From IMG/VR virus record IMGVR_UViG_3300022305_000561: a stretch of 64,000 bases of DNA; one strand, given 5' to 3'. Of this stretch, positions 2,490 through 60,960 are shown one piece after another; within the stretch, counting starts at the first letter, position 1, and the number at the start of each line of letters is the position of its first letter. Under the pieces are notes generated by a model. It was not told where the DNA came from, searched no databases, and saw only the letters and a list, made by a program, of their open reading frames with translations. The DNA is from a virus (taxonomy: Duplodnaviria > Caudoviricetes). Both the position numbers and the translations under genes were made by a program.

Positions 2490-2750
2490 CTATTTCTTCA
2501 ACTTTTCGATCTTGTTTTTCTTTGCAATATCGATAGCGAAACTGTTGATCATGCAAGTATCCACCATTATCTGAACCATTGCCAGAAAGTCACCAATCTC
2601 TTCCTCAAGATGTTCTCTATTAGTCTGGTCAGATTCGATGACAGGATTGACTGCTTCCCACCCGAATCGAAATACCTTGGAGACTGCTTGGACCACTTCA
2701 GCGGATTCCTCTTGTAGGATCAGCAGGATTTCTCTATCTTTATCGTTCAT
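2490..2750 (-). CDS. MazG-like nucleotide pyrophosphohydrolase
   Basis: EESAEVVQAVSK..LEEEIGD acidic MazG motifs; likely start MNDKD. Confidence 0.75.
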   Translation of the reverse strand: MNDKDREILLILQEESAEVVQAVSKVFRFGWEAVNPVIESDQTNREHLEEEIGDFLAMVQIMVDTCMINSFAIDIAKKNKIEKLKK

Positions 2751-2939
2751 ATTGATCTTTACAACTTCCTCTATCAAATCCTTATCCGTCTTTGCGTGTT
2801 TATCTCACACCATTTTCAGCATAATTCTGTTTATCTGAACCAACAAAAGGATATGCAGATACATTGGATATCCGACGAGTAACGATATCAACCTCCCTAC
2901 CACCACGATCTATGTATTTCTTTCCAACTTCTAATTTCA

Positions 2940-3149
2940 TCACTTAACCCCAAAATGTTTGTTGACTCTCTGTATGGCATTGTCTGCAACATCCCAATCA
3001 CATGAGTATGCTACTTCATCCTTGACGATTTGCATCGCTTCTTTGATGATCAGTTCAGCGAACTTTTTGATAGCATCTGGTTGAGGGTATCCTGCGTGTA
3101 TATGCAATCCTGCTTGGTCAAGCAGTCTGGCTAGTTCTCTATCATTCAT
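2940..3149 (-). CDS. hypothetical protein
   Basis: ORF overlapping its neighbours (ATGA-type coupling); KFAELII..HFGV pattern. Confidence 0.6.
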   Translation of the reverse strand: MNDRELARLLDQAGLHIHAGYPQPDAIKKFAELIIKEAMQIVKDEVAYSCDWDVADNAIQRVNKHFGVK

Positions 3150-3487
3150 ACAATCACCGAATATTCTGTGTAATCTTTTGATTCTTTGGTAACATCTTGG
3201 ACTTCAGATAGATACAAGCCTGAGAACTGAGTACCGAACACGATTTCTTTGGAGTTCTTTGTTAGGAAGTCAGCAGCAAACTCAAGGAATTGCATATCGT
3301 GGTTTTCAAGTACATAGAAGATTTCGATGCAACGTTCTAGGCGTTGAGATTCAGTTTCAAGGACATCTTCCGACAATGGAATCTTTTTGAATGATAGGAT
3401 AGAAGCAGCAACAATAGTTAATGCAGTTTCTACTTGTTTGATAGTTGGTTGAACTGCAGCGCTTACTTGGCTTTTTTGTAGTCTCAT
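3146..3487 (-). CDS. hypothetical early protein
   Basis: ORF with its own TTTACT/TACAAT promoter and GTGAGAA leader. Confidence 0.6.
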   Translation of the reverse strand: MRLQKSQVSAAVQPTIKQVETALTIVAASILSFKKIPLSEDVLETESQRLERCIEIFYVLENHDMQFLEFAADFLTKNSKEIVFGTQFSGLYLSEVQDVTKESKDYTEYSVIV

Positions 3488-4362: not shown

Positions 4363-4460
4363 TATAAATAGTAATAGGTGTTACTCGCGGATAGCCGTCC
4401 CAGTAACTCTAATCATTCTTACATTAATCAAGGACTAATATGACCAGCATAGATATGTAT
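4363..4460 (+). repeat. conserved endonuclease-leader module, copy A
   Basis: TATAAATA; hairpin GTTACT-CGC-GGA-tagccg-TCC-C-AGTAAC (4380-4407); TCTAATCATTCT; AAGGA; ATGACCAGC. Confidence 0.9.
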
Positions 4461-10291: not shown

Positions 10292-11301
10292 TGGGTTAAT
10301 AATAATGTGGCGGCAATACCAGATGCAGTATTGTCCACAATAAGTTTTTCAATTTCATTTTTGGTGTACCCTGATTGAGCTAATTCGTTGATGTCTTTCT
10401 CTAGGATAGTTTCTGGCATCAAACATACAGTATAGCCTAGTCTTATATATTTTGATACACTTTTAACGATAGCGATATTGCGGGGTTCATTATCAACAAT
10501 CAATACAATCTTGTCTTTATGGTCTTGCATAAACTCAGAGTCAAATGCTGATACCCCTGATGCAGCAATACAGTTATCTATGAATAAACTATCAAGTTGA
10601 CCTTCTGTAGCGTATATAGTCATATCAACATCTACCCTTTCTAAACCATATAGAAGTTGTTCATCACCAAGTTTGACATTATGATACTTGAGCATTTCAT
10701 TTCCAAATGCCCTACCTGCCCAACCAGTAAGGTTGCCTTCTTGATTGAAATGAGGGATAACTAACCTTGGCGCATCATCATTGGTAAACATATCTGCTTT
10801 GTGATGAGTCTTTACCCATTGTTTATACTTAGGGCAAAAATACAACAGATTCCAATACTCTTTTGGTATCTTCCTTTTCTGAACATAAAGGACAGCAGGA
10901 TGATTATCATTCAAATCTGATATTTTATATAGCTCATCTAATGGGCTTGAAATTCTAGGCACAGAGAATTTAGGCGTTGAGTCTGGAAACTTAAACACTG
11001 GAGTATGGTTGTGATGACAGTTTGATTTGTATTTTTCTAAAGTGTATTCAGAATGCAAATTATGATCAACATGTTCTAGGAGTTTAGCTAAAGTTGTTCC
11101 TACATTACAGTTGTGGCAACGATACAATAAAGTGCCTTTTTTGGCATAGATGTACCCTCTTGCTTTTGTCTTGTGCTTTACTGAGTCGTTACAATATGGA
11201 CAACTGAAGTTCCAAGTATTATTACCTTGTTTCTTATAGTTTCTGACTCTGGTTGATATCATCGACGCAAACTTCACATCAACGTAAAATGAAATGCTCA
11301 T
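10276..11301 (-). CDS. 61: DNA primase (gp61)
   Basis: CPYC.DS..CHNC Zn-ribbon, EGQLDSLF TOPRIM, DNEPRN, KDINE. Confidence 0.95.
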   Translation of the reverse strand: MSISFYVDVKFASMISTRVRNYKKQGNNTWNFSCPYCNDSVKHKTKARGYIYAKKGTLLYRCHNCNVGTTLAKLLEHVDHNLHSEYTLEKYKSNCHHNHTPVFKFPDSTPKFSVPRISSPLDELYKISDLNDNHPAVLYVQKRKIPKEYWNLLYFCPKYKQWVKTHHKADMFTNDDAPRLVIPHFNQEGNLTGWAGRAFGNEMLKYHNVKLGDEQLLYGLERVDVDMTIYATEGQLDSLFIDNCIAASGVSAFDSEFMQDHKDKIVLIVDNEPRNIAIVKSVSKYIRLGYTVCLMPETILEKDINELAQSGYTKNEIEKLIVDNTASGIAATLLLTQWRKI

Positions 11302-22464: not shown

Positions 22465-22588
22465 TATAAATACATTATATAACTATTTATATAAAAAGTA
22501 AAGGTGTTAGTCACGGTTTGCAGACCTACTAACTCTAATCATTCTTCTATTAATTACAGGAACCAATATGACCAGCAAAACTATTTAT
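22465..22588 (+). repeat. conserved endonuclease-leader module, copy B
   Basis: TATAAATA 22465; hairpin GTTAGT-CAC-GGT-ttgcag-ACC-T-ACTAAC (22506-22533); TCTAATCATTCT; ATGACCAGC. Confidence 0.9.
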
Positions 22589-31548: not shown

Positions 31549-32102
31549 AACTTAAACCCCGATGTGTCTTTCTTTTCTTTAGGTGTATAAGATGGAGTTG
31601 GTGCAGCTAATCCAGCTTGAGCTGAGTTCTCAACATCAAATATTCTCATCTTGTTTCTATCAATACCAACTACAAATTTCTTATAATAACTTGGATCGTT
31701 GTAACGATTCTTCAACTGCTTAATCATTATCTGCCCTAACTCCTCAAGTTCTTCTGTTGATATCAAAGCCAACATCAAATCACAAGTTTGAGGTAAACCT
31801 ATAGAGTTTTTAGTCAGAATATCGTTACAATAAAATAGATTATCGCCAGTAACTGTAATATCAATAGTTTGTAATATTCCAACGTCTTCTATAGAAATAA
31901 TCTCATCATTATAATCAATAAGTTTATCCGACAGTTCCGATTTTAACTGCCGCTCATCCTCTATTGTAAATAATAAATCTGTTAGCTCAAATAAAGTCAT
32001 ATCATTAGTTTGGTGGATGTATTCTTTTTCTTTTAGATATATCGCTTTTTTAAAACACTTTTCATATAAAGCTGGATTTTGTTCATAGTTTGGTTGATTC
32101 AT
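31545..32102 (-). CDS. 41: gp41 helicase fragment 3 (C-intein 2 plus C-extein)
   Basis: DEIISIEDVG..TIDITV..LFYCNDILTKN/SIGLPQTCD..KQLKNRY. Confidence 0.9.
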   Translation of the reverse strand: MNQPNYEQNPALYEKCFKKAIYLKEKEYIHQTNDMTLFELTDLLFTIEDERQLKSELSDKLIDYNDEIISIEDVGILQTIDITVTGDNLFYCNDILTKNSIGLPQTCDLMLALISTEELEELGQIMIKQLKNRYNDPSYYKKFVVGIDRNKMRIFDVENSAQAGLAAPTPSYTPKEKKDTSGFKF

Positions 32103-33159
32103 ATTGAGTCCATAATTTAGTAATAAGTTCTTTATATTCTTGCAATTTTGTTTTTTTATCGTCATCTGACCATATAATATTATACATCATACCTCTATCT
32201 TCTGCTATAGATTGCTTATATTCGTCCGATAGTAAAGAAGATTGGTAATCATTAAATGGATTTTTCCAATCTTCTATTTTTCTAGCATGCCATAAAATTC
32301 CATGATACTCTATTATAACACCTATCTTCTGAATAGTAAAATCATAAAAAAAACCCTGATTAGTTAATTTAGAATTATCCCTTATAAAAAATTCCTTAGA
32401 TCCAGTTACACCAAAATATATACTGTCTCTAGGGATACCTAATTTCCTACAGAACTTATACAATGGAATAAAAAACCTTATAGATTCCTTAGAGACATAA
32501 CCCCCAGTTCTTCTACTATCCATACCTGCAAGTAAAGATTCCGTTCTAGTTTTATTACAAGAAATATATTTTTTTAGTCCTTTTTCTTCACCATGTCTCA
32601 ATATAAACCCATCGAGTGATTGTGACATATTCGCTAAATATGGTATCCTAAGAATCTCAGCTTCTTCGAGGGTATACCCATTTTTAATCCAATAGTCTAT
32701 AGAAAATTTTAACTTCTCAGAGTGGTTATCATAACTCAATTTAGTTCGTTTTTTGGCATTTTTAGATTGTATATCGAATACTTTAGAAATAGCGTCGGGT
32801 TCCGACATACCTTTGGATATCCAATAGTCCTTTGAGAACCCATTGTATCTATTTTCCGAAACAGGCCTAACCTTTAGTTTATTTTCATATATTATTAACC
32901 CTTCTTTACCATACCTCAATAGTATTTTATCTTTATGTTTTGTTATACTTTTATATTTTTTATATAACATAATATGATCTATATCATAAATTTTATATAA
33001 ATCATATAATATCCTTGCTGTACCAAAAATACTACCTTTTGATGTTTCCTTGTCTATTATCGTAAGGAGATCCTTCATAAAAAGGTCTATCTTATCTTTA
33101 GGTAGATTATCAAGTATATTAGTTATTATGGTAGATTCTTGCCAAGTGGTTTTTCTCAT
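32083..33159 (-). CDS. free-standing endonuclease (Vsr/DUF559-like) between the halves of gp41 split intein 2
   Basis: YW..KG repeats; FYDF..IIEYHG..WH..D..K; late promoter at 33189-33196 (-). Confidence 0.8.
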   Translation of the reverse strand: MRKTTWQESTIITNILDNLPKDKIDLFMKDLLTIIDKETSKGSIFGTARILYDLYKIYDIDHIMLYKKYKSITKHKDKILLRYGKEGLIIYENKLKVRPVSENRYNGFSKDYWISKGMSEPDAISKVFDIQSKNAKKRTKLSYDNHSEKLKFSIDYWIKNGYTLEEAEILRIPYLANMSQSLDGFILRHGEEKGLKKYISCNKTRTESLLAGMDSRRTGGYVSKESIRFFIPLYKFCRKLGIPRDSIYFGVTGSKEFFIRDNSKLTNQGFFYDFTIQKIGVIIEYHGILWHARKIEDWKNPFNDYQSSLLSDEYKQSIAEDRGMMYNIIWSDDDKKTKLQEYKELITKLWTQYESTKL

Positions 33160-33225
33160 ACATGTATTCCTATGTTTGTGTGTATTACTATTTATAAGAA
33201 TTGGTATTTACCACAAACATAGTGA

Positions 33226-34398
33226 TTAATAAGATTTTAATCTATTACCGACGTTTAGACCCAGGTTAACAGATAATCTACCTAAATCTGAAGGGAATAT
33301 ATGATCTTTAGATACAGTGATACTCTTCCCACTCTTTAAGGTAATACAAACACATTCCTTAGGTTGCTCGTGGTGCACAAACATAGTAGTTTTAAATACA
33401 TCATTGGCTGTAATCCTATCTCCAGGGATTATATCGCCTATTCGCTTTATAGTGCCATCTATTAATTTAACCTTCTCATCCACCCAGATACATTCTGAAG
33501 TATTTGTTAAATCTAAATCTGAACTATTGATACCCTCACGATTAGACTGAGTTGCAGATACTAATGGTACATTATACTCAACTGCTAAACCTCTTAGTTC
33601 TTCTGCAATAGACTTGACATAGGTGTAACTATTAACACCAGCCCCAAACTTCATTCTCTGAGACGCACAGATGTTAAGATAATCAACAAAGATGATGTCT
33701 GGGACAAACTCTTTCTTAGATTTCAGTTCTTCAATCAAAGCTCTAAAGTGACCTGTATGAGCTGAAGCAGTTGGATATTCCTTGATGATTAGAGTACCAT
33801 GCGCTTTCTTTCTCAGCTTTTGAATACGACTTTCAAATATACTCTTATCGACAGTTTTGATTTCAGACATGCCTAGATTCAATAGATTAACATCTATTCT
33901 TTCTGCAATACGTTCTTCTGCCATTTCCATTGTAATATATAACACATTCTTTGTTTGGGCTAACGATGCTGCTGCCATATGACACATTACTAAAGATTTA
34001 CCAACACCAGTATTGTGTGATGAAACTCCATTAGTATAATATCTATGGTTATCGTGGTCTACTTGAATATCAACAATAGGTATCCTATTACCAGTCTTTA
34101 CTACATTTCCTTGAATAAGTATGTTCCCTTCTGTTAGATATAACTCATTAGGAATGTCGATTAAGTCTTTAGCATATTGCCAACCTTTATCAGTTTCAAA
34201 TAGATGGTTTTCATTTACCTTAACCTGTATTCCTGAATCCAAAGTAAGAATATATTCATCCCACTCTCCTTTATCAACAAATAAAGATACTGGAACATAA
34301 CCATCGGGTGAAGTCACTTCTATCTCATATCTAGAAGCTAATAACATATCAATATCTCCTATCGATATTTCTTGTTCTTCCCATTCGCTATTAATCAT
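33226..34398 (-). CDS. 41: gp41 helicase fragment 2 (C-intein 1, helicase core, N-intein 2)
   Basis: ..YYTNGVSSHN/TGVGKS; YITMEMAEE; IFVDYL; SATQ.NR; TSE/CIWVD..SKDHIF. Confidence 0.93.
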   Translation of the reverse strand: MINSEWEEQEISIGDIDMLLASRYEIEVTSPDGYVPVSLFVDKGEWDEYILTLDSGIQVKVNENHLFETDKGWQYAKDLIDIPNELYLTEGNILIQGNVVKTGNRIPIVDIQVDHDNHRYYTNGVSSHNTGVGKSLVMCHMAAASLAQTKNVLYITMEMAEERIAERIDVNLLNLGMSEIKTVDKSIFESRIQKLRKKAHGTLIIKEYPTASAHTGHFRALIEELKSKKEFVPDIIFVDYLNICASQRMKFGAGVNSYTYVKSIAEELRGLAVEYNVPLVSATQSNREGINSSDLDLTNTSECIWVDEKVKLIDGTIKRIGDIIPGDRITANDVFKTTMFVHHEQPKECVCITLKSGKSITVSKDHIFPSDLGRLSVNLGLNVGNRLKSY

Positions 34399-35528: not shown

Positions 35529-36146
35529 CTATTCTACTTTATCAAGTTCTTCTTCAATATCTTCATCAACAACTTTATCTAGTTCGGCAGTTATTGATTC
35601 GTCAGTTAATAGTTGACCAGTCGCTAACGTATATCTTTCCCTAACCCACGATAAGAATGTTTTATCTGATAAGATAGGCAACCAGAAGTCTTTGGTATCT
35701 GTATCTTTGATACGATATTTCTTTTCTTGTATTTCGCCAGATAATACATCAACCTTAGAATACCATCCATTTGAGGGTTTTATGACATGACCAGATTCCA
35801 AAGCCATTTCGAGCAATCCAGACCATGTGCTAATACCACCTTCAAACTTCACAGTGATTGGAATTTTAGACTTTTCTCTAACGTGTCTAGACTTCTCAAC
35901 ATTAATGATGAAACTATATCCTGATACTTCTGTTCCTTCTTTTTCTTGTTGTCTGCCTATAATGTAAATATTATCGGCGCTTAGGTAGACCCCAGTTCCA
36001 CCACTCACGATAGGTTTACTGTAGAGCTCTTGGGTATTATGAGAAATGATACCATTACTTAAAACATAATCGTGGGTTGGTGTTTCTATATCATAAACAT
36101 ATTCTTTTCGTGAATTAAATTTAATAGACTTAATCATCATTTTCAT
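35529..36146 (-). CDS. uvsX: UvsX recombinase C-fragment with 37-aa C-intein
   Basis: IKSI..VYDIET..YVLSNGIISHN/TQELY..VSGGTG..KSR. Confidence 0.92.
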   Translation of the reverse strand: MKMMIKSIKFNSRKEYVYDIETPTHDYVLSNGIISHNTQELYSKPIVSGGTGVYLSADNIYIIGRQQEKEGTEVSGYSFIINVEKSRHVREKSKIPITVKFEGGISTWSGLLEMALESGHVIKPSNGWYSKVDVLSGEIQEKKYRIKDTDTKDFWLPILSDKTFLSWVRERYTLATGQLLTDESITAELDKVVDEDIEEELDKVE

Positions 36147-36901
36147 TTTTTCTTACTCCTACAATTATCAAAATGCCAGCGACCGCTAGCAACAATCATC
36201 TTACAATGGGGGCATTCTCTTTTTTCATGTTTCCAAGTTAAACCAAATGTTGGATTATTTTCACCTTTCCTAGAACCTATCTTAGAAGTTCTTTCGGCAT
36301 AATCCATAGATTTTACCGAATTTATCCTACGAGCTTCTTGTTCTGTTGTAAAGTTATTTCTAACGGTTTTCATGGAAACTGATTTATGATACCAATCAGT
36401 TTCCTTTAAAATATCAAAACAATCATTCATCTCAGCAAAAAATTTTAAACTGTTTCTAATATTAGATAAAGTGAGACCAATCCCCTTTCTTATATCTGGA
36501 GAAGATATCTTCTCTTTTGTGTACATTTCCCAAATACGAGTAGTTTGTGCGATATAATCATCAAATCCATATTTTCTAGCCCATCTATCTTTAATGGATA
36601 TTCCAATATTTTTAGCAAAGGCTCTTCTTATCCAACCGTAACTCTTATTTGATTGCCTCCCAAACCTATTTGAACACATCATCGTACAAGCATAAATCAA
36701 TTTAGAAATATCTGGGTTGATTTTAACCAATAATAAATGTGCCAAATAGTGTTCTTCTGGAGTCAACCTAACTAAATTATCGAGGGTATCTGCTCCGCCC
36801 ATACAAGTTGGTAATATATGATGTACTTCAACATACCCATCTATATGTGATCGTAAAATACCCCTATTGATTAAACGGTTATAATGTTTTAAATAATTCA
36901 T
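36143..36901 (-). CDS. HNH homing endonuclease between the UvsX split-intein halves
   Basis: EVHHILP..GG..NLVRLTPEEHYLAHLLL; C-terminal CPHC..RWHFDNC. Confidence 0.9.
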   Translation of the reverse strand: MNYLKHYNRLINRGILRSHIDGYVEVHHILPTCMGGADTLDNLVRLTPEEHYLAHLLLVKINPDISKLIYACTMMCSNRFGRQSNKSYGWIRRAFAKNIGISIKDRWARKYGFDDYIAQTTRIWEMYTKEKISSPDIRKGIGLTLSNIRNSLKFFAEMNDCFDILKETDWYHKSVSMKTVRNNFTTEQEARRINSVKSMDYAERTSKIGSRKGENNPTFGLTWKHEKRECPHCKMIVASGRWHFDNCRSKKK

Positions 36902-36950
36902 ATTCTTACCTATGTTATGTATATATGAACTATTTATATATTTTAAACTT

Positions 36951-37805
36951 TCAGATAATATCTAAATACATACCCTCATGTAAATCCTCCACTAACACCC
37001 ATTCACCATTCACCTTAAATTTATGTCCCGATGTAAAAGAAAGCGTTGACCCATCTTCCATTTCAATATCAGTAACAAATGCCTCATCATACTTAAATTT
37101 ATTTAAAACTGGCTCAAATCCATTGGTGGTTAATACATTACACCCAACCTCGATATCTTTTAATGATAATGGTCCAGTTTCTGTCGTCACCATCATATCT
37201 TTAGTACCGCACATATAGATATGGTTAACAGCTACCATAGGAATGTCAAACTTCACTAGGTATGGAGTTATCATCCTAAAGATAGACTTCATTTGCTTTG
37301 CTCTTGACATATCTGTAACAGATTTACCATCCTTTGCATCATCAATTTCTTTCTTACTTGACATATTACCCAAGGAATCTACTAAGAATATGATTTTATC
37401 GCCTTTCGTTATGTTCTCTAAATGATTAATAGCATCTAACTTGAATTCTTCCATATTCATAATTGGAGTATGTAGAATTCTCGACTTGTCCATATTCAAT
37501 GAATCAAAATATGATTCAGGTGTTCCAAACTCACAATCATAGAATACCATAATAGATTCTGGATACTTGTCCATATAGGCTTTTGCCAGGATCAAACAGA
37601 AGAAACTCTTAAAGTGTTTTGAGTTACCACAAAACAAAGTAAGCCCAGGAGTTAATCCACCATCTAATCTTCCCGAAAGAGCTACATTCAATGCTGGGAT
37701 TGGTGTTGGGATCATATCTTTTTTCGTAAAGAATTTAGAAACTGCCAATGTGGAAGTTTCTTTGATGGTACTATTTTTCTTCATTCTTGCTAATAACTCA
37801 CTCAT
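36951..37805 (-). CDS. uvsX: UvsX recombinase N-fragment with 86-aa N-intein
   Basis: LNVALSG..G.SKHFKS, YDCEFG, DSLGN, NHIYM/CGTKD..TSGHKF. Confidence 0.92.
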   Translation of the reverse strand: MSELLARMKKNSTIKETSTLAVSKFFTKKDMIPTPIPALNVALSGRLDGGLTPGLTLFCGNSKHFKSFFCLILAKAYMDKYPESIMVFYDCEFGTPESYFDSLNMDKSRILHTPIMNMEEFKLDAINHLENITKGDKIIFLVDSLGNMSSKKEIDDAKDGKSVTDMSRAKQMKSIFRMITPYLVKFDIPMVAVNHIYMCGTKDMMVTTETGPLSLKDIEVGCNVLTTNGFEPVLNKFKYDEAFVTDIEMEDGSTLSFTSGHKFKVNGEWVLVEDLHEGMYLDII

Positions 37806-37869
37806 ATTATCACCTTTATTATTGTTATGATACAACTATTATAACCCCAAATTGGATAAAAGTAAAGAC

Positions 37870-38046
37870 TTATTTTTCTTCCCATAAACCCATCGGTCCA
37901 AATCTATTCCTAAGTTCTTCTAGATTGGCTGGTTGTCTAGAAACATTGGCATCATTCCAATGGCTCTGTTGGTGCTGATTGAACTGGGTTTTGAGGATCC
38001 AATTATAACAGAAAGGGCATTGATATTCAAGTTTATACGGATTCAT
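37870..38046 (-). CDS. C2H2 zinc-finger micro-protein (58 aa), divergent from leader copy C
   Basis: MNPYKLEYQCPFCYNWILKTQFNQHQQSHW..LEELRNRFGPMGLWEEK; paralog at 57185. Confidence 0.7.
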   Translation of the reverse strand: MNPYKLEYQCPFCYNWILKTQFNQHQQSHWNDANVSRQPANLEELRNRFGPMGLWEEK

Positions 38047-38053
38047 AATCTAC

Positions 38054-38175
38054 AGTTTCCAATTCTTATAAATAGTAATGAAACAAAAAATGCCAATCAC
38101 GGGTTTCTGACACCCTATTGGCTCTAATCATTCTTTCAATAATCAAGGACTATTATGACCAGCAACGATATTTAT
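38054..38175 (+). repeat. conserved endonuclease-leader module, copy C
   Basis: AGTTTCCAATTCT-TATAAATA; hairpin GCCAAT-CAC-GGGT..ACCC-T-ATTGGC (38092-38122); TCTAATCATTCT; ATGACCAGC. Confidence 0.9.
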
Positions 38176-38815
38176 TCCCCAATTACCCCAACCTATCTCT
38201 GCATCAAACAACATTCCATCACCAAGAAAAAATATTTCGGCAAGACCACAAGATCAGATCCAATAAAGTATAAAGGATCAGGAGTTTACTGGGGTCTTCA
38301 TATCAACAAGCACGGTAGGCAGTTCGTCGAAACAATCTGGCTATCCGATCTATACTACGATACCTCTATAGTAGAACAAGCACTCCATTTCTCACACGAA
38401 AACAGCATCGTCGAATCAGACGATTGGGCAAATATAATCCCAGAAAATGGATTAGATGGAGCTCCTGCAGGTAATAAAAAAAGGACCACATTCTGATGAA
38501 ACAAAATCTAAAATATCTGCTGCTATGATAGGTAAGAAAAGAGGTCCCCAATCCGATGAGCGTAAATCTAAACAATCTATTGCTATAACAGGCAAAAAGG
38601 CTTCTGATGAAACAAAAGCTAAACAATCTGCTGCTAAGGTAGGTAAGAAGAAAGGTCCACATTCAGACGACCATAAAGAAAAATTATCTGCTGCTATGAT
38701 AGGTAAGAAGAAAGGTCCTCCTTCTGACGAAACTAAGGCAAAAAGAGCAGTAACTAGAGCTGCTAATAAAGCAGCTCGTCTATTGTTAAAAGAATTAATC
38801 ATCAACGATTTGTAA
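38155..38815 (+). pseudogene. GIY-YIG-like endonuclease with NUMOD3-like repeats, frameshifted at an A7 run (38476-38482)
   Basis: TYLCIKQH..KYFGKT..YKGSG.YW..ENGLDG, then KKGPHSDETK repeats in the +1 frame. Confidence 0.75.
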
Positions 38816-39965: not shown

Positions 39966-40076
39966 AGTTTCCAATTCTTATAAATAGTAATAAACAAAAA
40001 AAATGCCAATCACGATGCGTCAACAAAATAGGTGCAGGAAACAGTATGAAAAGATGGCATTTTGATAACTGTAAGT
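39966..40076 (+). pseudogene. internally deleted endonuclease element between gp43A and gp43B
   Basis: Leader 5' part (AGTTTCCAATTCTTATAAATAG..TGCCAATCACG) joined to codons G.GNSMKRWHFDNCK, the C-terminal motif seen in ORFs 22568 and 36143. Confidence 0.75.
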
Positions 40077-42605: not shown

Positions 42606-42718
42606 GAGTTTTCAATTTGTATAAATAGATATAGGTGTTACTCACGGATGGCTGTCCTAGTAACTCTAATCATTCTACTATTAATTCAGGAACTAATATG
42701 ACCAGCACAAGTATATAT
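42606..42718 (+). repeat. conserved endonuclease-leader module, copy D
   Basis: TATAAATA 42620; hairpin GTTACT-CAC-GGA-tggctg-TCC-T-AGTAAC (42637-42664); TCTAATCATTCT; ATGACCAGC. Confidence 0.9.
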
Positions 42719-53913: not shown

Positions 53914-54989
53914 ATAATTTCTTTTGCATCAAGATATAAAGATTTCATAAAGGATTTAATCTTATCACGGTTTGTGTCATCAGCGACTGAATCAACATAA
54001 CCCTCAAGCACTTCTAAGGTGTTTTCAATACTTATTTGAGTTGTATCAACAACTCCCTCTGAGAAATCAGACAAATCTTCAAGTATCTTAATCTCATAGG
54101 TATCGCTTTCATAAAGTTTCTTTAGGAACTGATCAAACTTATAATAATCTGTTTTCTTTACTACTACTATTTTGATATACTTCTGTTGAAACTGCTCTAT
54201 ATCAATAGTATCATAATCAACTAATTCATCATTGTATTCGTGTCTAAGAAACATTGTATAGGGATTCTTAATGAATTCTGTTTGTCTTGTTTCTGTATCG
54301 AATATATGAAATCCTTTCTGGTCATTGTAATCAGACCAAGTCATTTCATAAGGAGTGCCGACATAATGAATATTTTCTTTATCAGATTTAGTATGAAAAT
54401 GACCTGAATAAACACCTTCATATTTGGCGAACATTTTGTAATTTATTTCTCCAGAATCAATAAGTTGTTTCAATTCTTTAGATACATCTTGTCCTTTATA
54501 CATCGGAAAATTGGAAAACTCAAAATGCCCGAAGCATAAATCAGATTTACTATCTCGGATAAACTCGAATGCTTCTTCTACATTCTCTTTACATATCCAA
54601 GGAATGATGTCGATAGATGTATTATCGACATCCCATTTTGTCATCTTATCATAAATATGAAGATTTGTAAACTCACCAAGTAATAATCCTGTAGAGTTTA
54701 CAGATAATGATTCACGATAATAAAGATCGTGATTACCCAACAATGTACATAGAACTATACCAGCATCTTGTAGTGGTTGAAAGAAGAACCTTTTACTTTC
54801 AGCCAAAGTATTGAAGTTGATATACTTTCTTCTATCAAACATATCACCAAGTTGCCATACAACTTTAATGTCATTTTCAATAAGATATGGCAGGAAGACA
54901 TTAGTATAAAACTTATCTTGTAGGGCAAGAAAGTTAGGACTATCTGATCTTACGCCAAAATGAGTATCACCGCAGATTGCTATCTTCAT
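53910..54989 (-). CDS. 47: recombination nuclease subunit (gp47, Mre11-like)
   Basis: DTHFG, LGD.FD.R, GNHD, SGHFH. Confidence 0.96.
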   Translation of the reverse strand: MKIAICGDTHFGVRSDSPNFLALQDKFYTNVFLPYLIENDIKVVWQLGDMFDRRKYINFNTLAESKRFFFQPLQDAGIVLCTLLGNHDLYYRESLSVNSTGLLLGEFTNLHIYDKMTKWDVDNTSIDIIPWICKENVEEAFEFIRDSKSDLCFGHFEFSNFPMYKGQDVSKELKQLIDSGEINYKMFAKYEGVYSGHFHTKSDKENIHYVGTPYEMTWSDYNDQKGFHIFDTETRQTEFIKNPYTMFLRHEYNDELVDYDTIDIEQFQQKYIKIVVVKKTDYYKFDQFLKKLYESDTYEIKILEDLSDFSEGVVDTTQISIENTLEVLEGYVDSVADDTNRDKIKSFMKSLYLDAKEII

Positions 54990-55890: not shown

Positions 55891-56215
55891 TTACTTAATA
55901 TCCACTTGATGTAACTTAAGATCAAATTGCTCTTCTGAGTAGGCCTTAACTCTCTCGGCAAAGTGATTCAAAGTATGATTCATAGATGACTTATAGGAAA
56001 GGTCATCTGCCACATCGTAAAGCACACAGGATGATTTGCCTTCCCTCAACCTAAGACCTCGTCCTATAGATTGGAAGTTTCGTATTTTACTCTTAGTTGG
56101 ACTAGCAAAGATAATATTCTCAATAGATGGAATATTAATACCAGTAGAGAAAGTTGCGTCAATAGGACGCAATAATAATTGCGCCCCTGACCTCCTGTAT
56201 TTTTTCTGGTAACAT
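55891..56215 (-). CDS. uvsW: UvsW helicase C-fragment, interrupted by a 4-nt insertion containing a stop
   Basis: ATG overlaps the HNH stop (TAATG); reads MLPEKIQEVRGAIIIASY-[TGAC]-ATFSTGINIP..QSIGRGLR. Confidence 0.7.
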
Positions 56216-57087
56216 TAAGATAGCCTTTTAGATTTCGATTTATCCTTCACCCAATAAAATCCTATTGGGCACTCTTTTGTTTTTGTTTTATTTATACCAT
56301 CTGTCCAAATCCTTAAACCTACTCTAGAGGATTTTTGCCTATCCCTAAAATCCTGATCCTCCCACATCGTTTTTATTTTTTCTCCAGCATCTAATCGCTT
56401 ATCAATATTTGTATTGACTATTAACATCTTTTCATTAAAAGCTATTTTATATTCATCATCCCTTTCATCCCATACTTTTTGTTGAGAAATAGAGGATTTT
56501 ATTTTTTCTTCTGGTCTATTCTTAAACTCAGACTGATATTCTGAAAACGATATTCTACGATCATCAGTCCAAGAATCCTGGGATGATTGTTTATGCTTAG
56601 CCTTTGTTTCAGGATTTAACATGTGTATGTGTATAGATGTTGATATACCATTTTTCACTTGTTCTCTTGCTATGATAGCTCGCTTTGCTCTGAATCCATC
56701 GTATTTTTCGGTATCTTTTTTTAGAACTTCCCACGCTGATGTAGAACCCTTAGACATCATATCTCTATATTCTTCAGAAGTCAAATCACTTCTCATAAAC
56801 CTAAGAGGGTTTATGAATTTATTTATAGGATATGCCTGAGCCAACAGTTTATGTGCCTGAACGTGGGTTGAATATTCTAATTTTACTAGATTCCAAGAAC
56901 AATCTATAAACTGAGGGAATATGCTCTTAGGTAATATGTGATGTATTTCGGCATAAACGCCCTCATTGCATACTTTTGTTATTAAACTAAGATATTCTTC
57001 TAGATATGATAAAGATTCTGGAGCACCTAATTCTTCATCTAATTTTGATTGAAAAAAAATATTATTATATATACTTATGCTGGTCAT
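56215..57087 (-). CDS. HNH homing endonuclease inserted in uvsW
   Basis: EIHHILPKS.FP..WNLVKL..HVQAHKLL; start MTSISIY. Confidence 0.85.
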   Translation of the reverse strand: MTSISIYNNIFFQSKLDEELGAPESLSYLEEYLSLITKVCNEGVYAEIHHILPKSIFPQFIDCSWNLVKLEYSTHVQAHKLLAQAYPINKFINPLRFMRSDLTSEEYRDMMSKGSTSAWEVLKKDTEKYDGFRAKRAIIAREQVKNGISTSIHIHMLNPETKAKHKQSSQDSWTDDRRISFSEYQSEFKNRPEEKIKSSISQQKVWDERDDEYKIAFNEKMLIVNTNIDKRLDAGEKIKTMWEDQDFRDRQKSSRVGLRIWTDGINKTKTKECPIGFYWVKDKSKSKRLS

Positions 57088-57178
57088 AATGGTTTCCATT
57101 GTTGAATGATTAGAGTTAGTGGGTTCCGAGGCCGCGACTAACACCTTTTACTATACTATTTATAAGAATTGGAAACTC
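57067..57178 (-). repeat. conserved endonuclease-leader module, copy E
   Basis: AGTTTCCAATTCT-TATAAATA; hairpin GTTAGT-CGC-GG..CC-C-ACTAAC (57142-57115); TCTAATCATTC; ATGACCAGC. Confidence 0.9.
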
Positions 57179-57184
57179 TAGATT

Positions 57185-57354
57185 ATGAATCCAGACAAAC
57201 TTGAATATCAATGCCCCTATTGCCACGAGTGGATATTGAAAACTCAATATAGCAACCACGAAAACTTGCATATCAATGAATGGTTAATGCACCAACAACA
57301 CTAGATGAACTAGAACGAAGATTAAGACCTTTGGGATTGTTTGACGAAAGATAA
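57185..57354 (+). CDS. C2H2 zinc-finger micro-ORF divergent from leader copy E (39 aa; homologous tail out of frame)
   Basis: MNPDKLEYQCPYCHEWILKTQYSNHENLH, stop at 57304; shifted frame reads LDELERRLRPLGLFDER*, matching the 37870 paralog. Confidence 0.65.
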
Positions 57355-59714: not shown

Positions 59715-60866
59715 TTAGATATTAGTATTTATAAGGGATTTGCTGGCTCTTGGTTTCATACCCTTTTTCCAAGATGGATTTGGCTCGTCTCCCTTTGGAA
59801 CATAGAAATTTGTAATACCATCATTATAAACAACAGCGTCTTTCCTTTGCTTTGTAGAGGCAGCAGTTTGTGCTGACCTATCTCTAGGGAGTTGTCCTTT
59901 TATCCACTCACCACCAGGATCCTGTTTGAACTTCTTCATAATAGATCCATTGTTATAAAAACTAGAACCAGTATTAACCTCAGCAGCCAATTTAGATCTT
60001 TTTACATTTTGGTTCTGTTTGTTTTCTGTATAAGGAACAATCAATCCAAGTTCTTGTATGACTGGGTCTGAAGTAGAAATGTATCCGTATTTGGTAACTC
60101 CATCAGGATAGTAGAAAGTGAACTTACCTTTCATTTTGGTAGATTGTTTTCCATTACCTTGTAATCTGATATATTCATAATCTTCAGGGGACTTGGGATT
60201 ATGCCAACCTTGATTAAGCAATTCTGTATATTCGTCTGATTGGATTTGTATTGTTTTAACTTGATCAAGTAAATATAGTTTAATAGTTCTACAATGATCT
60301 TTAGATCTAGCCATAAGTTCTTTAGATTCATCAGTCATAGTTAAACCAGCATTATTTCCAACTAAGTTCAACTCTTGTATAGTTGTGTCATCTTTATGTA
60401 AATAATATTTGGCTCCATTAGAATCTTTATAAGTAGCCATATTTGAATGTTCTAATGATCTTTGGATAGATGCATCTTCTCTAAGTTTTGATAAAGTTAG
60501 TCTAATATATTTTGTAGGTATTTTTCTATATGAAAGTTTATCGTTTGTAGATTCATTGAAATTAAATAACATACACTCTAATGCCCTTGATTGAGAACCG
60601 CCAAAAGTTTTCCATAGAATAACGTGAGCTATAATATGTTGATGTGCCGTTAGGTTAATAATATTCCAAGAAAAAAGTATTTTGTTAGTGTATTCTGGAA
60701 ATAAGTCTTTTGCTTTAGGATAGATATGATGTCCTTCAGTATAAACCCAATCTATATTATTTGAATTTTTTAATCTACACCCATCAATGAACTTTAGATA
60801 TCTATTGAGATAATGTGCATTGTGGGGTTTACTTGAAAGGATTGTATAAATATTATTGCTGGACAT
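59715..60866 (-). CDS. HNH homing endonuclease
   Basis: KPHN.HYL.RY; EGHHIYPK..FP..WN..LTAHQH.IAH.ILWK; YNNG/YNDG..W.KG repeats. Confidence 0.85.
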   Translation of the reverse strand: MSSNNIYTILSSKPHNAHYLNRYLKFIDGCRLKNSNNIDWVYTEGHHIYPKAKDLFPEYTNKILFSWNIINLTAHQHIIAHVILWKTFGGSQSRALECMLFNFNESTNDKLSYRKIPTKYIRLTLSKLREDASIQRSLEHSNMATYKDSNGAKYYLHKDDTTIQELNLVGNNAGLTMTDESKELMARSKDHCRTIKLYLLDQVKTIQIQSDEYTELLNQGWHNPKSPEDYEYIRLQGNGKQSTKMKGKFTFYYPDGVTKYGYISTSDPVIQELGLIVPYTENKQNQNVKRSKLAAEVNTGSSFYNNGSIMKKFKQDPGGEWIKGQLPRDRSAQTAASTKQRKDAVVYNDGITNFYVPKGDEPNPSWKKGMKPRASKSLINTNI

Positions 60867-60960
60867 AGTAGTTCCTTGTAATTACGATTAGAATGTTTAG
60901 AGTTAGTAGGTCTGACCACCGTGACTAACACCTATTACTATTTATACAAATCAAAAACTC
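60845..60960 (-). repeat. conserved endonuclease-leader module, copy F
   Basis: TATAAATA 60946-60939; hairpin GTTAGT-CAC-GGT-ggtcag-ACC-T-ACTAAC (60929-60902); TCTAAACATTCT; ATGTCCAGC. Confidence 0.9.

Follow-up and report, generated by a model that had tools for sequence, protein, structure and literature searches.

An undescribed family of small phage zinc-finger genes, linked to homing endonuclease cassettes and optional in them

A small open reading frame (ORF) that faces away from a homing endonuclease gene in a T4-like phage is a genuine protein-coding gene under purifying selection, belongs to an undescribed family known just from uncultured, mostly T4-like, phages, and is linked to homing endonuclease cassettes while remaining optional within them. 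As modelled, its product is a zinc-stabilised mini-protein of approximately 58 residues, in which one C2H2-like finger is packed on a C-terminal helix and tail. On balance, we regard the gene as probably an optional passenger of these cassettes, with a product that would act by protein binding.

Two copies of the gene and their cassettes

The DNA analysed here (the 'window', meaning the whole stretch of 64 kb) comes from a T4-like myovirus of 34.5% G+C, to which cultured cyanophages and pelagiphages are only distant relatives. Free-standing homing endonuclease genes and 'fractured' genes abound in it: a split intein that encloses an HNH gene breaks up uvsX, the two parts of gp43 are separated by a cassette remnant, an HNH gene interrupts uvsW, and gp41 is also fragmented. 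One leader module is common to six nuclease genes, with two truncated remnants besides; behind the late promoter TATAAATAG it has a hairpin, followed by the box CTCTAATCATTC and then by a ribosome-binding site ahead of the start ATGACCAGC. The nuclease ORFs of these cassettes belong to homing families (matches to phrog_655, phrog_12434 and phrog_314, together with NUMOD3 and SegE_GIY-YIG hits), and the TATAAATA late promoter and the hairpin stand upstream of them. The hairpin displays covariation across 36 leaders, consisting of the window modules (4363-4447, 22485-22575, 38067-38162, 42609-42705, 57080-57164 and 60845-60957) and 30 metagenomic ones. A leader of this type was already known from fractured-gene loci (Dassa et al. 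2009, PMC2677866; review PMC2988022). The features that concern the small ORF are as follows.

37838-37866, minus strand: outward sigma70-like promoter, TTTACT-N17-TATAAT, from a promoter scan; faces uvsX
37870-38046, minus strand: zinc-finger gene copy C, an intact ORF of 58 amino acids
38054-38075, plus strand: shared box AGTTTCCAATTCTTATA, overlapping the late promoter TATAAATAG (38067-38075) that drives the nuclease gene
38092-38133, plus strand: leader hairpin (38092-38122) and conserved box CTCTAATCATTC (38122-38133), from covariation in the 36 leaders
38155-38815, plus strand: Seg-like homing endonuclease of cassette C, with NUMOD3 repeats and the start ATGACCAGC
39966-39989, plus strand: third shared box and late promoter, in a remnant between the DNA polymerase halves that has no zinc-finger ORF
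56215-57087, minus strand: HNH-type homing endonuclease of cassette E, in uvsW, with phrog_655 and phrog_12434 matches
57104-57177, minus strand: cassette E leader (shared box 57161-57177, late promoter 57156-57164, hairpin 57115-57142, CTCTAATCATTC box 57104-57115)
57185-57304, plus strand: zinc-finger gene copy E, finger intact, 39-residue product
57292-57354, plus strand: displaced copy E tail, in another frame, with a dN/dS of approximately 0.16 against the tail of the L004 relative

A first-pass annotation of this DNA had drawn attention to copies C and E, and both were found at the positions that it gave, with translations that agree and with the C-x2-C-x11-H-x3-H pattern that it described. 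A six-frame scan of the 64 kb for C-x2-C-x9-13-H-x3-5-H returned just these two related copies and one unrelated match at 11053. The near-identical sequence reported 5' of both ORFs corresponds to a 17-mer, TATAAGAATTGGAAACT, at 38054-38070 (minus strand) and 57161-57177 (plus strand), and a third copy of it was located at 39966-39982 (minus strand), inside the ORF-less remnant between the DNA polymerase halves. The back-to-back placement of the ORFs with the late promoter was likewise borne out: the start lies 28 nt from the reverse complement of TATAAATA, which faces a nuclease beginning with ATGACCAGC.

In copy C, a beta-beta-alpha C2H2-like finger at approximately residues 7-29 is followed by a conserved C-terminal helix and tail, and the outward TTTACT-N17-TATAAT element begins directly past the stop codon. 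This element recurs 3' of the finger gene at three other loci (L001, L005 and L007), and is found in the ORF-less cassettes D and R as well. Copy E is frameshifted by a 7-nt deletion in its linker relative to intact relatives and stops after 39 codons, and its displaced tail runs antisense over the last ten codons of the N-part of UvsW. The frame of that tail has its own ATG (57280) immediately past a stop, giving a 24-residue ORF (57280-57354, plus strand) in which the conserved tail is intact.

The annotation had further held that the two adjoining nucleases differ, being GIY-YIG and HNH enzymes respectively. The difference stands, and the cassette E product indeed matches the PHROGs categories 'homing endonuclease' and 'HNH endonuclease', while the GIY-YIG label of the cassette C enzyme reflects a motif only. 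The latter is homologous to a homing endonuclease at L004 (2524-3228) that is a member of phrog_314, and is encoded by two overlapping ORFs (38155-38496 and 38456-38815), broken at an A-run. The frame switches near 38470, and the L004 homologue (2524-3228) is a continuous ORF of 234 residues; the split gene in cassette C could be a pseudogene, a sequencing error or a case of slippage.

Coding evidence and the protein family

Evidence that the small ORF encodes a selected product comes from its comparison with L001, a metagenome contig of 1.4 kb whose encoded protein is 90% identical to copy C, the DNA of the two gene copies being 82% identical. Third codon positions hold 17 of the 23 nucleotide differences between the two, and when 23 differences were placed at random, none of 20,000 trials gave so few amino-acid changes. 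The resulting dN/dS ratio, for which the first-pass annotation had proposed that a value near 1 would speak against its idea, was 0.065 (dN 0.057, dS 0.878). A second pair, L004 and L005, gave a dN of 0.012 and a dS of 0.77 for the finger gene. In a promoter scan and a comparison of copies, no promoter of sigma70-like or late type proved to be conserved immediately 5' of the ORF; the single strong sigma70-like match lies inside the coding region of copy C and is not conserved among the remaining copies. Among the copies compared, no clear strong ribosome-binding site precedes the ORF.

A profile (HMMER) search of 1.84 billion representative proteins of any length produced 34 matches, approximately 26 of which are proteins of 56-68 residues that align with one another end to end. 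Members of this family consist of the finger, a variable linker and then, at the very C-terminus, a tail with the consensus PxTLEELKxRFxxLGLWEER, in which R48 and G53 are invariant in the family alignment. The metal-binding pattern of C10, C13, H25 and H29 is kept in at least 90% of 27 members; the finger spacer is 11 residues, as opposed to 12 in classical C2H2 domains, and W16 and F22 fill core positions. An AlphaFold2 model computed from the family alignment (mean pLDDT 89) predicts a compact fold, in which a beta-hairpin (E7-9, E16-18) is followed by a helix bearing both histidines (H19-27), a second helix (H42-49) and a terminal strand. The family is acidic, with a mean net charge of -2.6 and a median pI of 5.6, and where classical fingers have DNA-reading residues on the helix, this family has hydrophobic residues, proline or acidic residues, at position -1 too.

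Comparisons with described proteins left the family without a name. The best Pfam scores were 13-17.5 bits against cut-offs of 27-27.5 (zf-C2H2_4 and zf-Di19), and no Pfam model reached its threshold; NCBIfam gave no family match, and PHROGs gave only a weak match to phrog_10717. The family profile aligns to the fingers of ZBTB20 and SNAI1, in the case of ZBTB20 only with a one-residue gap. Foldseek searches of PDB and BFVD, as well as a wide VIA-align search, returned only noise-level matches to isolated zinc fingers; these neighbours, of which the pol eta UBZ (Z 2.8) is an example, are often protein-binding fingers. In the ESM Atlas only unnamed viral clusters were matched. The annotation had suggested a tblastn search of phage sequences, and when five family members were searched against 50,697 cultured-phage records no true match was obtained; scans of IMG/VR with subfamily alignments added no further members. 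Two candidate relatives were set aside: L003, from a metagenome pattern scan, proved to be a radical-SAM activase and was discarded, and L002 is a weak partial match (43% over 28 residues) that the family HMM failed to recover. What emerges is a new compact family of unannotated phage zinc-finger proteins, of approximately 58 residues, predicted to fold with confidence and cheap to synthesise.

Linkage, mobility and optional presence

The surroundings of the gene were surveyed at 14 distinct loci, on contigs that are mostly short, and a free-standing homing endonuclease adjoins the finger gene at 11 of them, in most cases with the late-promoter/hairpin leader and the finger gene back-to-back. 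At winC and winE (the two window copies), L001, L005, L006, L007, L009 and L013/14, the finger gene and a leader-bearing endonuclease gene point away from each other, and the late promoter is no more than approximately 50 nt away. It is divergent from a Seg-like gene having a different leader at L010-12; at L134-136 it lies in tandem behind a GIY-YIG gene, with a second, divergent endonuclease upstream; and at L004 it is tail-to-tail (convergent) with the endonuclease, its start codon sharing the sequence ATGA with the stop codon of gp55, which encodes the late sigma factor. The neighbouring nucleases are HNH-type at some loci and Seg/GIY-YIG-type at others. A distant subfamily (P0020 and P0035; L008 and L131-133) has no endonuclease neighbour, and is found between gp15 and the small terminase gene gp16 (L008 894-1398, L131 1223-2480, L132 713-1525), where it extends 8 nt into the gene that follows. 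Among the loci in which the finger gene occurs are those that gave the widely used gp41 and NrdJ split inteins.

Two further small reading frames were observed in these neighbourhoods. At L134, the divergent endonuclease and the GIY-YIG gene located ahead of the finger gene have between them a very small ORF (2520-2668), whose product contains two CxxC pairs and has an acidic tail. At L013, the ORF of a 69-residue C-terminal helicase fragment (Helicase_C_2; 283-492) overlaps the last 14 nt of the finger gene; it may be the 3' part of a further fractured gene, with its translation coupled to that of the finger gene.

Filled and empty versions of the same insertion site are available at two positions. 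The gp41 split site is filled in L005 and L001 and empty in the window: L005 carries there a block of approximately 950 bp in the order nuclease, leader, finger gene and promoter, and in the window the gp41 pieces are 54 nt apart. At the gp55/gp47 site, L004 carries a block of approximately 1.2 kb (378-1562) in the order finger gene, nuclease, leader and promoter, and in the window gp55 and gp47 overlap (ATGA, 54986-54989). In both comparisons the finger gene falls within the inserted block. The L004 cassette was inserted exactly at the gp55/gp47 overlap, and its finger gene takes over the ATGA coupling to gp55.

Other mobile sequences differ between the same genomes. L005 is without the uvsX split intein and its HNH gene, and is also without the second gp41 intein and its endonuclease (L005 89-102 and 3451-3462; window 36023-37212 and 31805-33481); since L005 and the window differ in the uvsX intein, the gp41 intein and the first gp41 split, the sites are filled in a mosaic pattern. 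Past gp41, L005 (3764-6351) encodes a Tet/JBP-like dioxygenase and an ADDT-family transferase, which hints at a phage group with hypermodified DNA bases.

The presence of the gene in a cassette is optional. Four of the six cassettes in the window are without it, and a leader-pattern scan of IMG/VR that yielded at least 22 distinct genuine cassettes, whose loci were fetched, revealed no finger gene anywhere in those loci. Where the gene is present, it is combined with varying partners. The fingers of winC and L001 are 90% identical, yet their hairpin stems differ and their nucleases are unrelated; those of L004 and L005 are 97% identical, and the adjoining nucleases are unrelated; and L001 and L005 share a genomic site and a nuclease (83% identical), with fingers that are just 57% identical. 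The first-pass annotation had inferred that the ORF tracks with the leader and not with the nuclease, and that finger, hairpin and nuclease form a three-part unit. These inferences are supported in part: the gene is linked to the leader and endonuclease cassette in most loci, alongside nucleases of differing families. An obligate unit is not supported, given those at least 22 cassettes and the free reassortment of finger, hairpin and nuclease types.

Possible roles and known systems

If the gene is an optional passenger, it would occupy the outward-facing arm of the cassette, between the late promoter and leader of the nuclease on one side and, on the other, an outward sigma70-like promoter that would restart the downstream host gene, and it would be copied from genome to genome along with the nuclease. 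Its product would then bind another protein, and would neither read the hairpin nor inhibit one particular nuclease; the most plausible partner might be a component of late DNA transactions (late transcription, packaging or recombination) or a host protein. Transcription would presumably occur on the strand of the flanking host genes, either by read-through or as the 3' continuation of an antisense RNA that crosses the start of the nuclease gene. The position of the distant subfamily upstream of gp16 and the coupling of the L004 copy to gp55 suggest, from gene order, a wider role, and were counted in favour of the passenger reading. The acidic charge of the protein does not strictly exclude RNA binding, and an adjacency to endonucleases that persists at very deep divergence would also be expected if finger and nuclease were functionally tied.

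That the finger might bind the leader hairpin or inhibit the nuclease, as the annotation had conjectured, is possible yet disfavoured: the family is acidic, the relevant helix positions are not basic, and a nuclease-free subfamily exists. A broader version of the idea, that each such cassette has its nuclease under the control of its finger protein, is doubtful, and would operate either through binding to invariant parts of the leader (the late promoter, the CTCTAATCATTC box, the start region or the hairpin), or through binding to the conserved MTSxxIY N-terminus or the shared DNA-binding modules of the nucleases; the effect would be to limit nuclease toxicity or to time homing, as a Com-like or antitoxin-like partner. 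Several observations fit such a regulator. At eight loci, whose fingers have diverged to 31-60% identity, a distance of 20-50 nt separates the late promoter from the ORF start, and the leader and first codons are common to all these nucleases, whatever their catalytic family. Where the cassette lies upstream of a DUF932 gene, L007 and L010 are diverged to a similar degree in nuclease (44% identical), finger (41%) and host gene (42%), and nuclease and finger have therefore long been together.

Further support is found on the antisense strand of the leader. The boxes CTCTAATCATTC and ATGACCAGC can pair with one another, in 34 of the 36 leaders with two G.U pairs on the finger-gene strand, where the nuclease strand would have two A.C mismatches, and this pairing may account for the observation that unrelated nucleases all start with MTS. 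Across the first 30 nt of 39 genes, nucleases of different catalytic families have the common N-terminus MTSxxIY, whose codons read on the opposite strand as TATAAATA in 15 of the 39, as NATAAATA in 19, and otherwise as TATATATA or TATAAGTA. The TATAAATA-like box in nuclease codons 5-8 is possibly an antisense late promoter, ending approximately 5 nt before the paired box; it is exact in only those 15 genes, and so is not claimed here as a promoter. If the corresponding RNA exists, the finger gene lies on the same strand, just 3' of an antisense transcript over the nuclease start. The finger gene is on the G.U-pairing strand and downstream of the putative antisense RNA, and its position directly 3' of the leader on the best-pairing strand could reflect co-regulation with the cassette. 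The reverse complement of the hairpin was also considered as an intrinsic terminator, but a T-run follows it only in winC and L006, and the arrangement is not general.

Against control of the nuclease by the finger protein, cassettes with the same leader mostly do without a finger, the type of finger is independent of both hairpin type and nuclease family, and the protein is acidic, with no basic recognition helix; moreover, the convergent and tandem arrangements and the nuclease-free subfamily beside gp16 misfit a leader-bound role, and copy E is broken while the ORF of its nuclease is intact. The more specific proposition that the cassette is a two-gene selfish element, in which the finger, made from the downstream portion of an antisense RNA that spans the nuclease start, is a dedicated trans-acting controller of the nuclease regulated by late promoter and hairpin, or a homing helper, is doubtful to the point of being unlikely; were it true, it would constitute a protein partner for homing endonucleases of a kind not described before.

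It is unlikely that the finger is instead host-directed or anti-defence cargo, aimed at a bacterial nuclease, a defence system or RNA polymerase, for which the cassette is the vehicle and from which any phage acquiring the gene benefits. The small size, acidity, single domain and phage-confined distribution of the protein, its patchy, optional and mobile occurrence, and the lack of any homologue of known function in Pfam, NCBIfam and PHROGs would all suit such a role; however, no similarity to known anti-defence proteins was seen in the family and structure libraries searched, and one subfamily is resident in an operon for late structural and packaging functions, where genes for early host takeover are not usually found. 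Finally, it is highly improbable that the ORF is no functional gene at all, whether an accident of conserved cassette DNA or a remnant of a larger gene, for example of a nuclease DNA-binding domain, for although frameshifts disrupt two (winE and L005) of the five close copies and a clear ribosome-binding site or promoter is absent, purifying selection is strong in several independent pairs, approximately 26 relatives keep the same length, start and C-terminus, and the length-unrestricted HMMER search uncovered no fused long form save unrelated eukaryotic multi-finger proteins.

With regard to known zinc fingers, the family resembles classical C2H2 domains in its Cys2His2 pattern, in the aromatic residue before the first cysteine, in its hydrophobic core and in its predicted beta-beta-alpha fold, and differs from them in that it is a phage-encoded, acidic, single finger with a unique conserved tail and an x11 rather than x12 spacer. 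The spacer in the pol eta UBZ is x11, equal to that of the present family.

The Com protein of phage Mu is a small zinc-finger activator that binds the leader hairpin of mom, and is thereby a precedent for the earlier conjecture that the finger binds the hairpin. Com is a Cys4 protein and a basic RNA binder, and is encoded co-directionally with, and overlapping, mom. Both systems place a zinc protein of approximately 60 residues beside a potentially harmful DNA-acting gene with a leader hairpin; the protein described here is, in contrast, Cys2His2 and acidic, is usually encoded divergently from the nuclease, and is missing from most cassettes.

In phage T4, mobA and the gene 60 bypass element together form one cassette. 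T4 seg and mob genes are also known with embedded host promoters (PMC2988022). In these cases, as in ours, an endonuclease mobilises extra adjacent functional sequence; the extra sequence in T4 is a cis-acting RNA or promoter, whereas here it is a separate protein gene.

The closest known systems are the free-standing homing endonuclease cassettes of fractured genes in marine phages (PMC2677866) and of T4-related phages (Edgell, Gibb & Belfort 2010, PMC2988022), which, like those described here, have a late promoter of the TATAAATA type and a 5' hairpin ahead of a GIY-YIG or HNH gene, reside in or between genes of DNA metabolism (gp41, uvsX, gp43 and uvsW), and bring control elements and promoters for the downstream host gene. 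In PMC2677866 and PMC2988022, mentions of zinc are confined to Vsr and the I-TevI linker, and no account of a second conserved protein-coding gene within the cassette was found in either paper. Homing endonuclease cassettes are usually viewed as one selfish gene accompanied by cis-acting signals, and here a second protein gene rides with them repeatedly; either endonucleases may serve as vehicles by which small accessory proteins pass from one phage to another, or a helper that acts in trans may form part of some cassettes.
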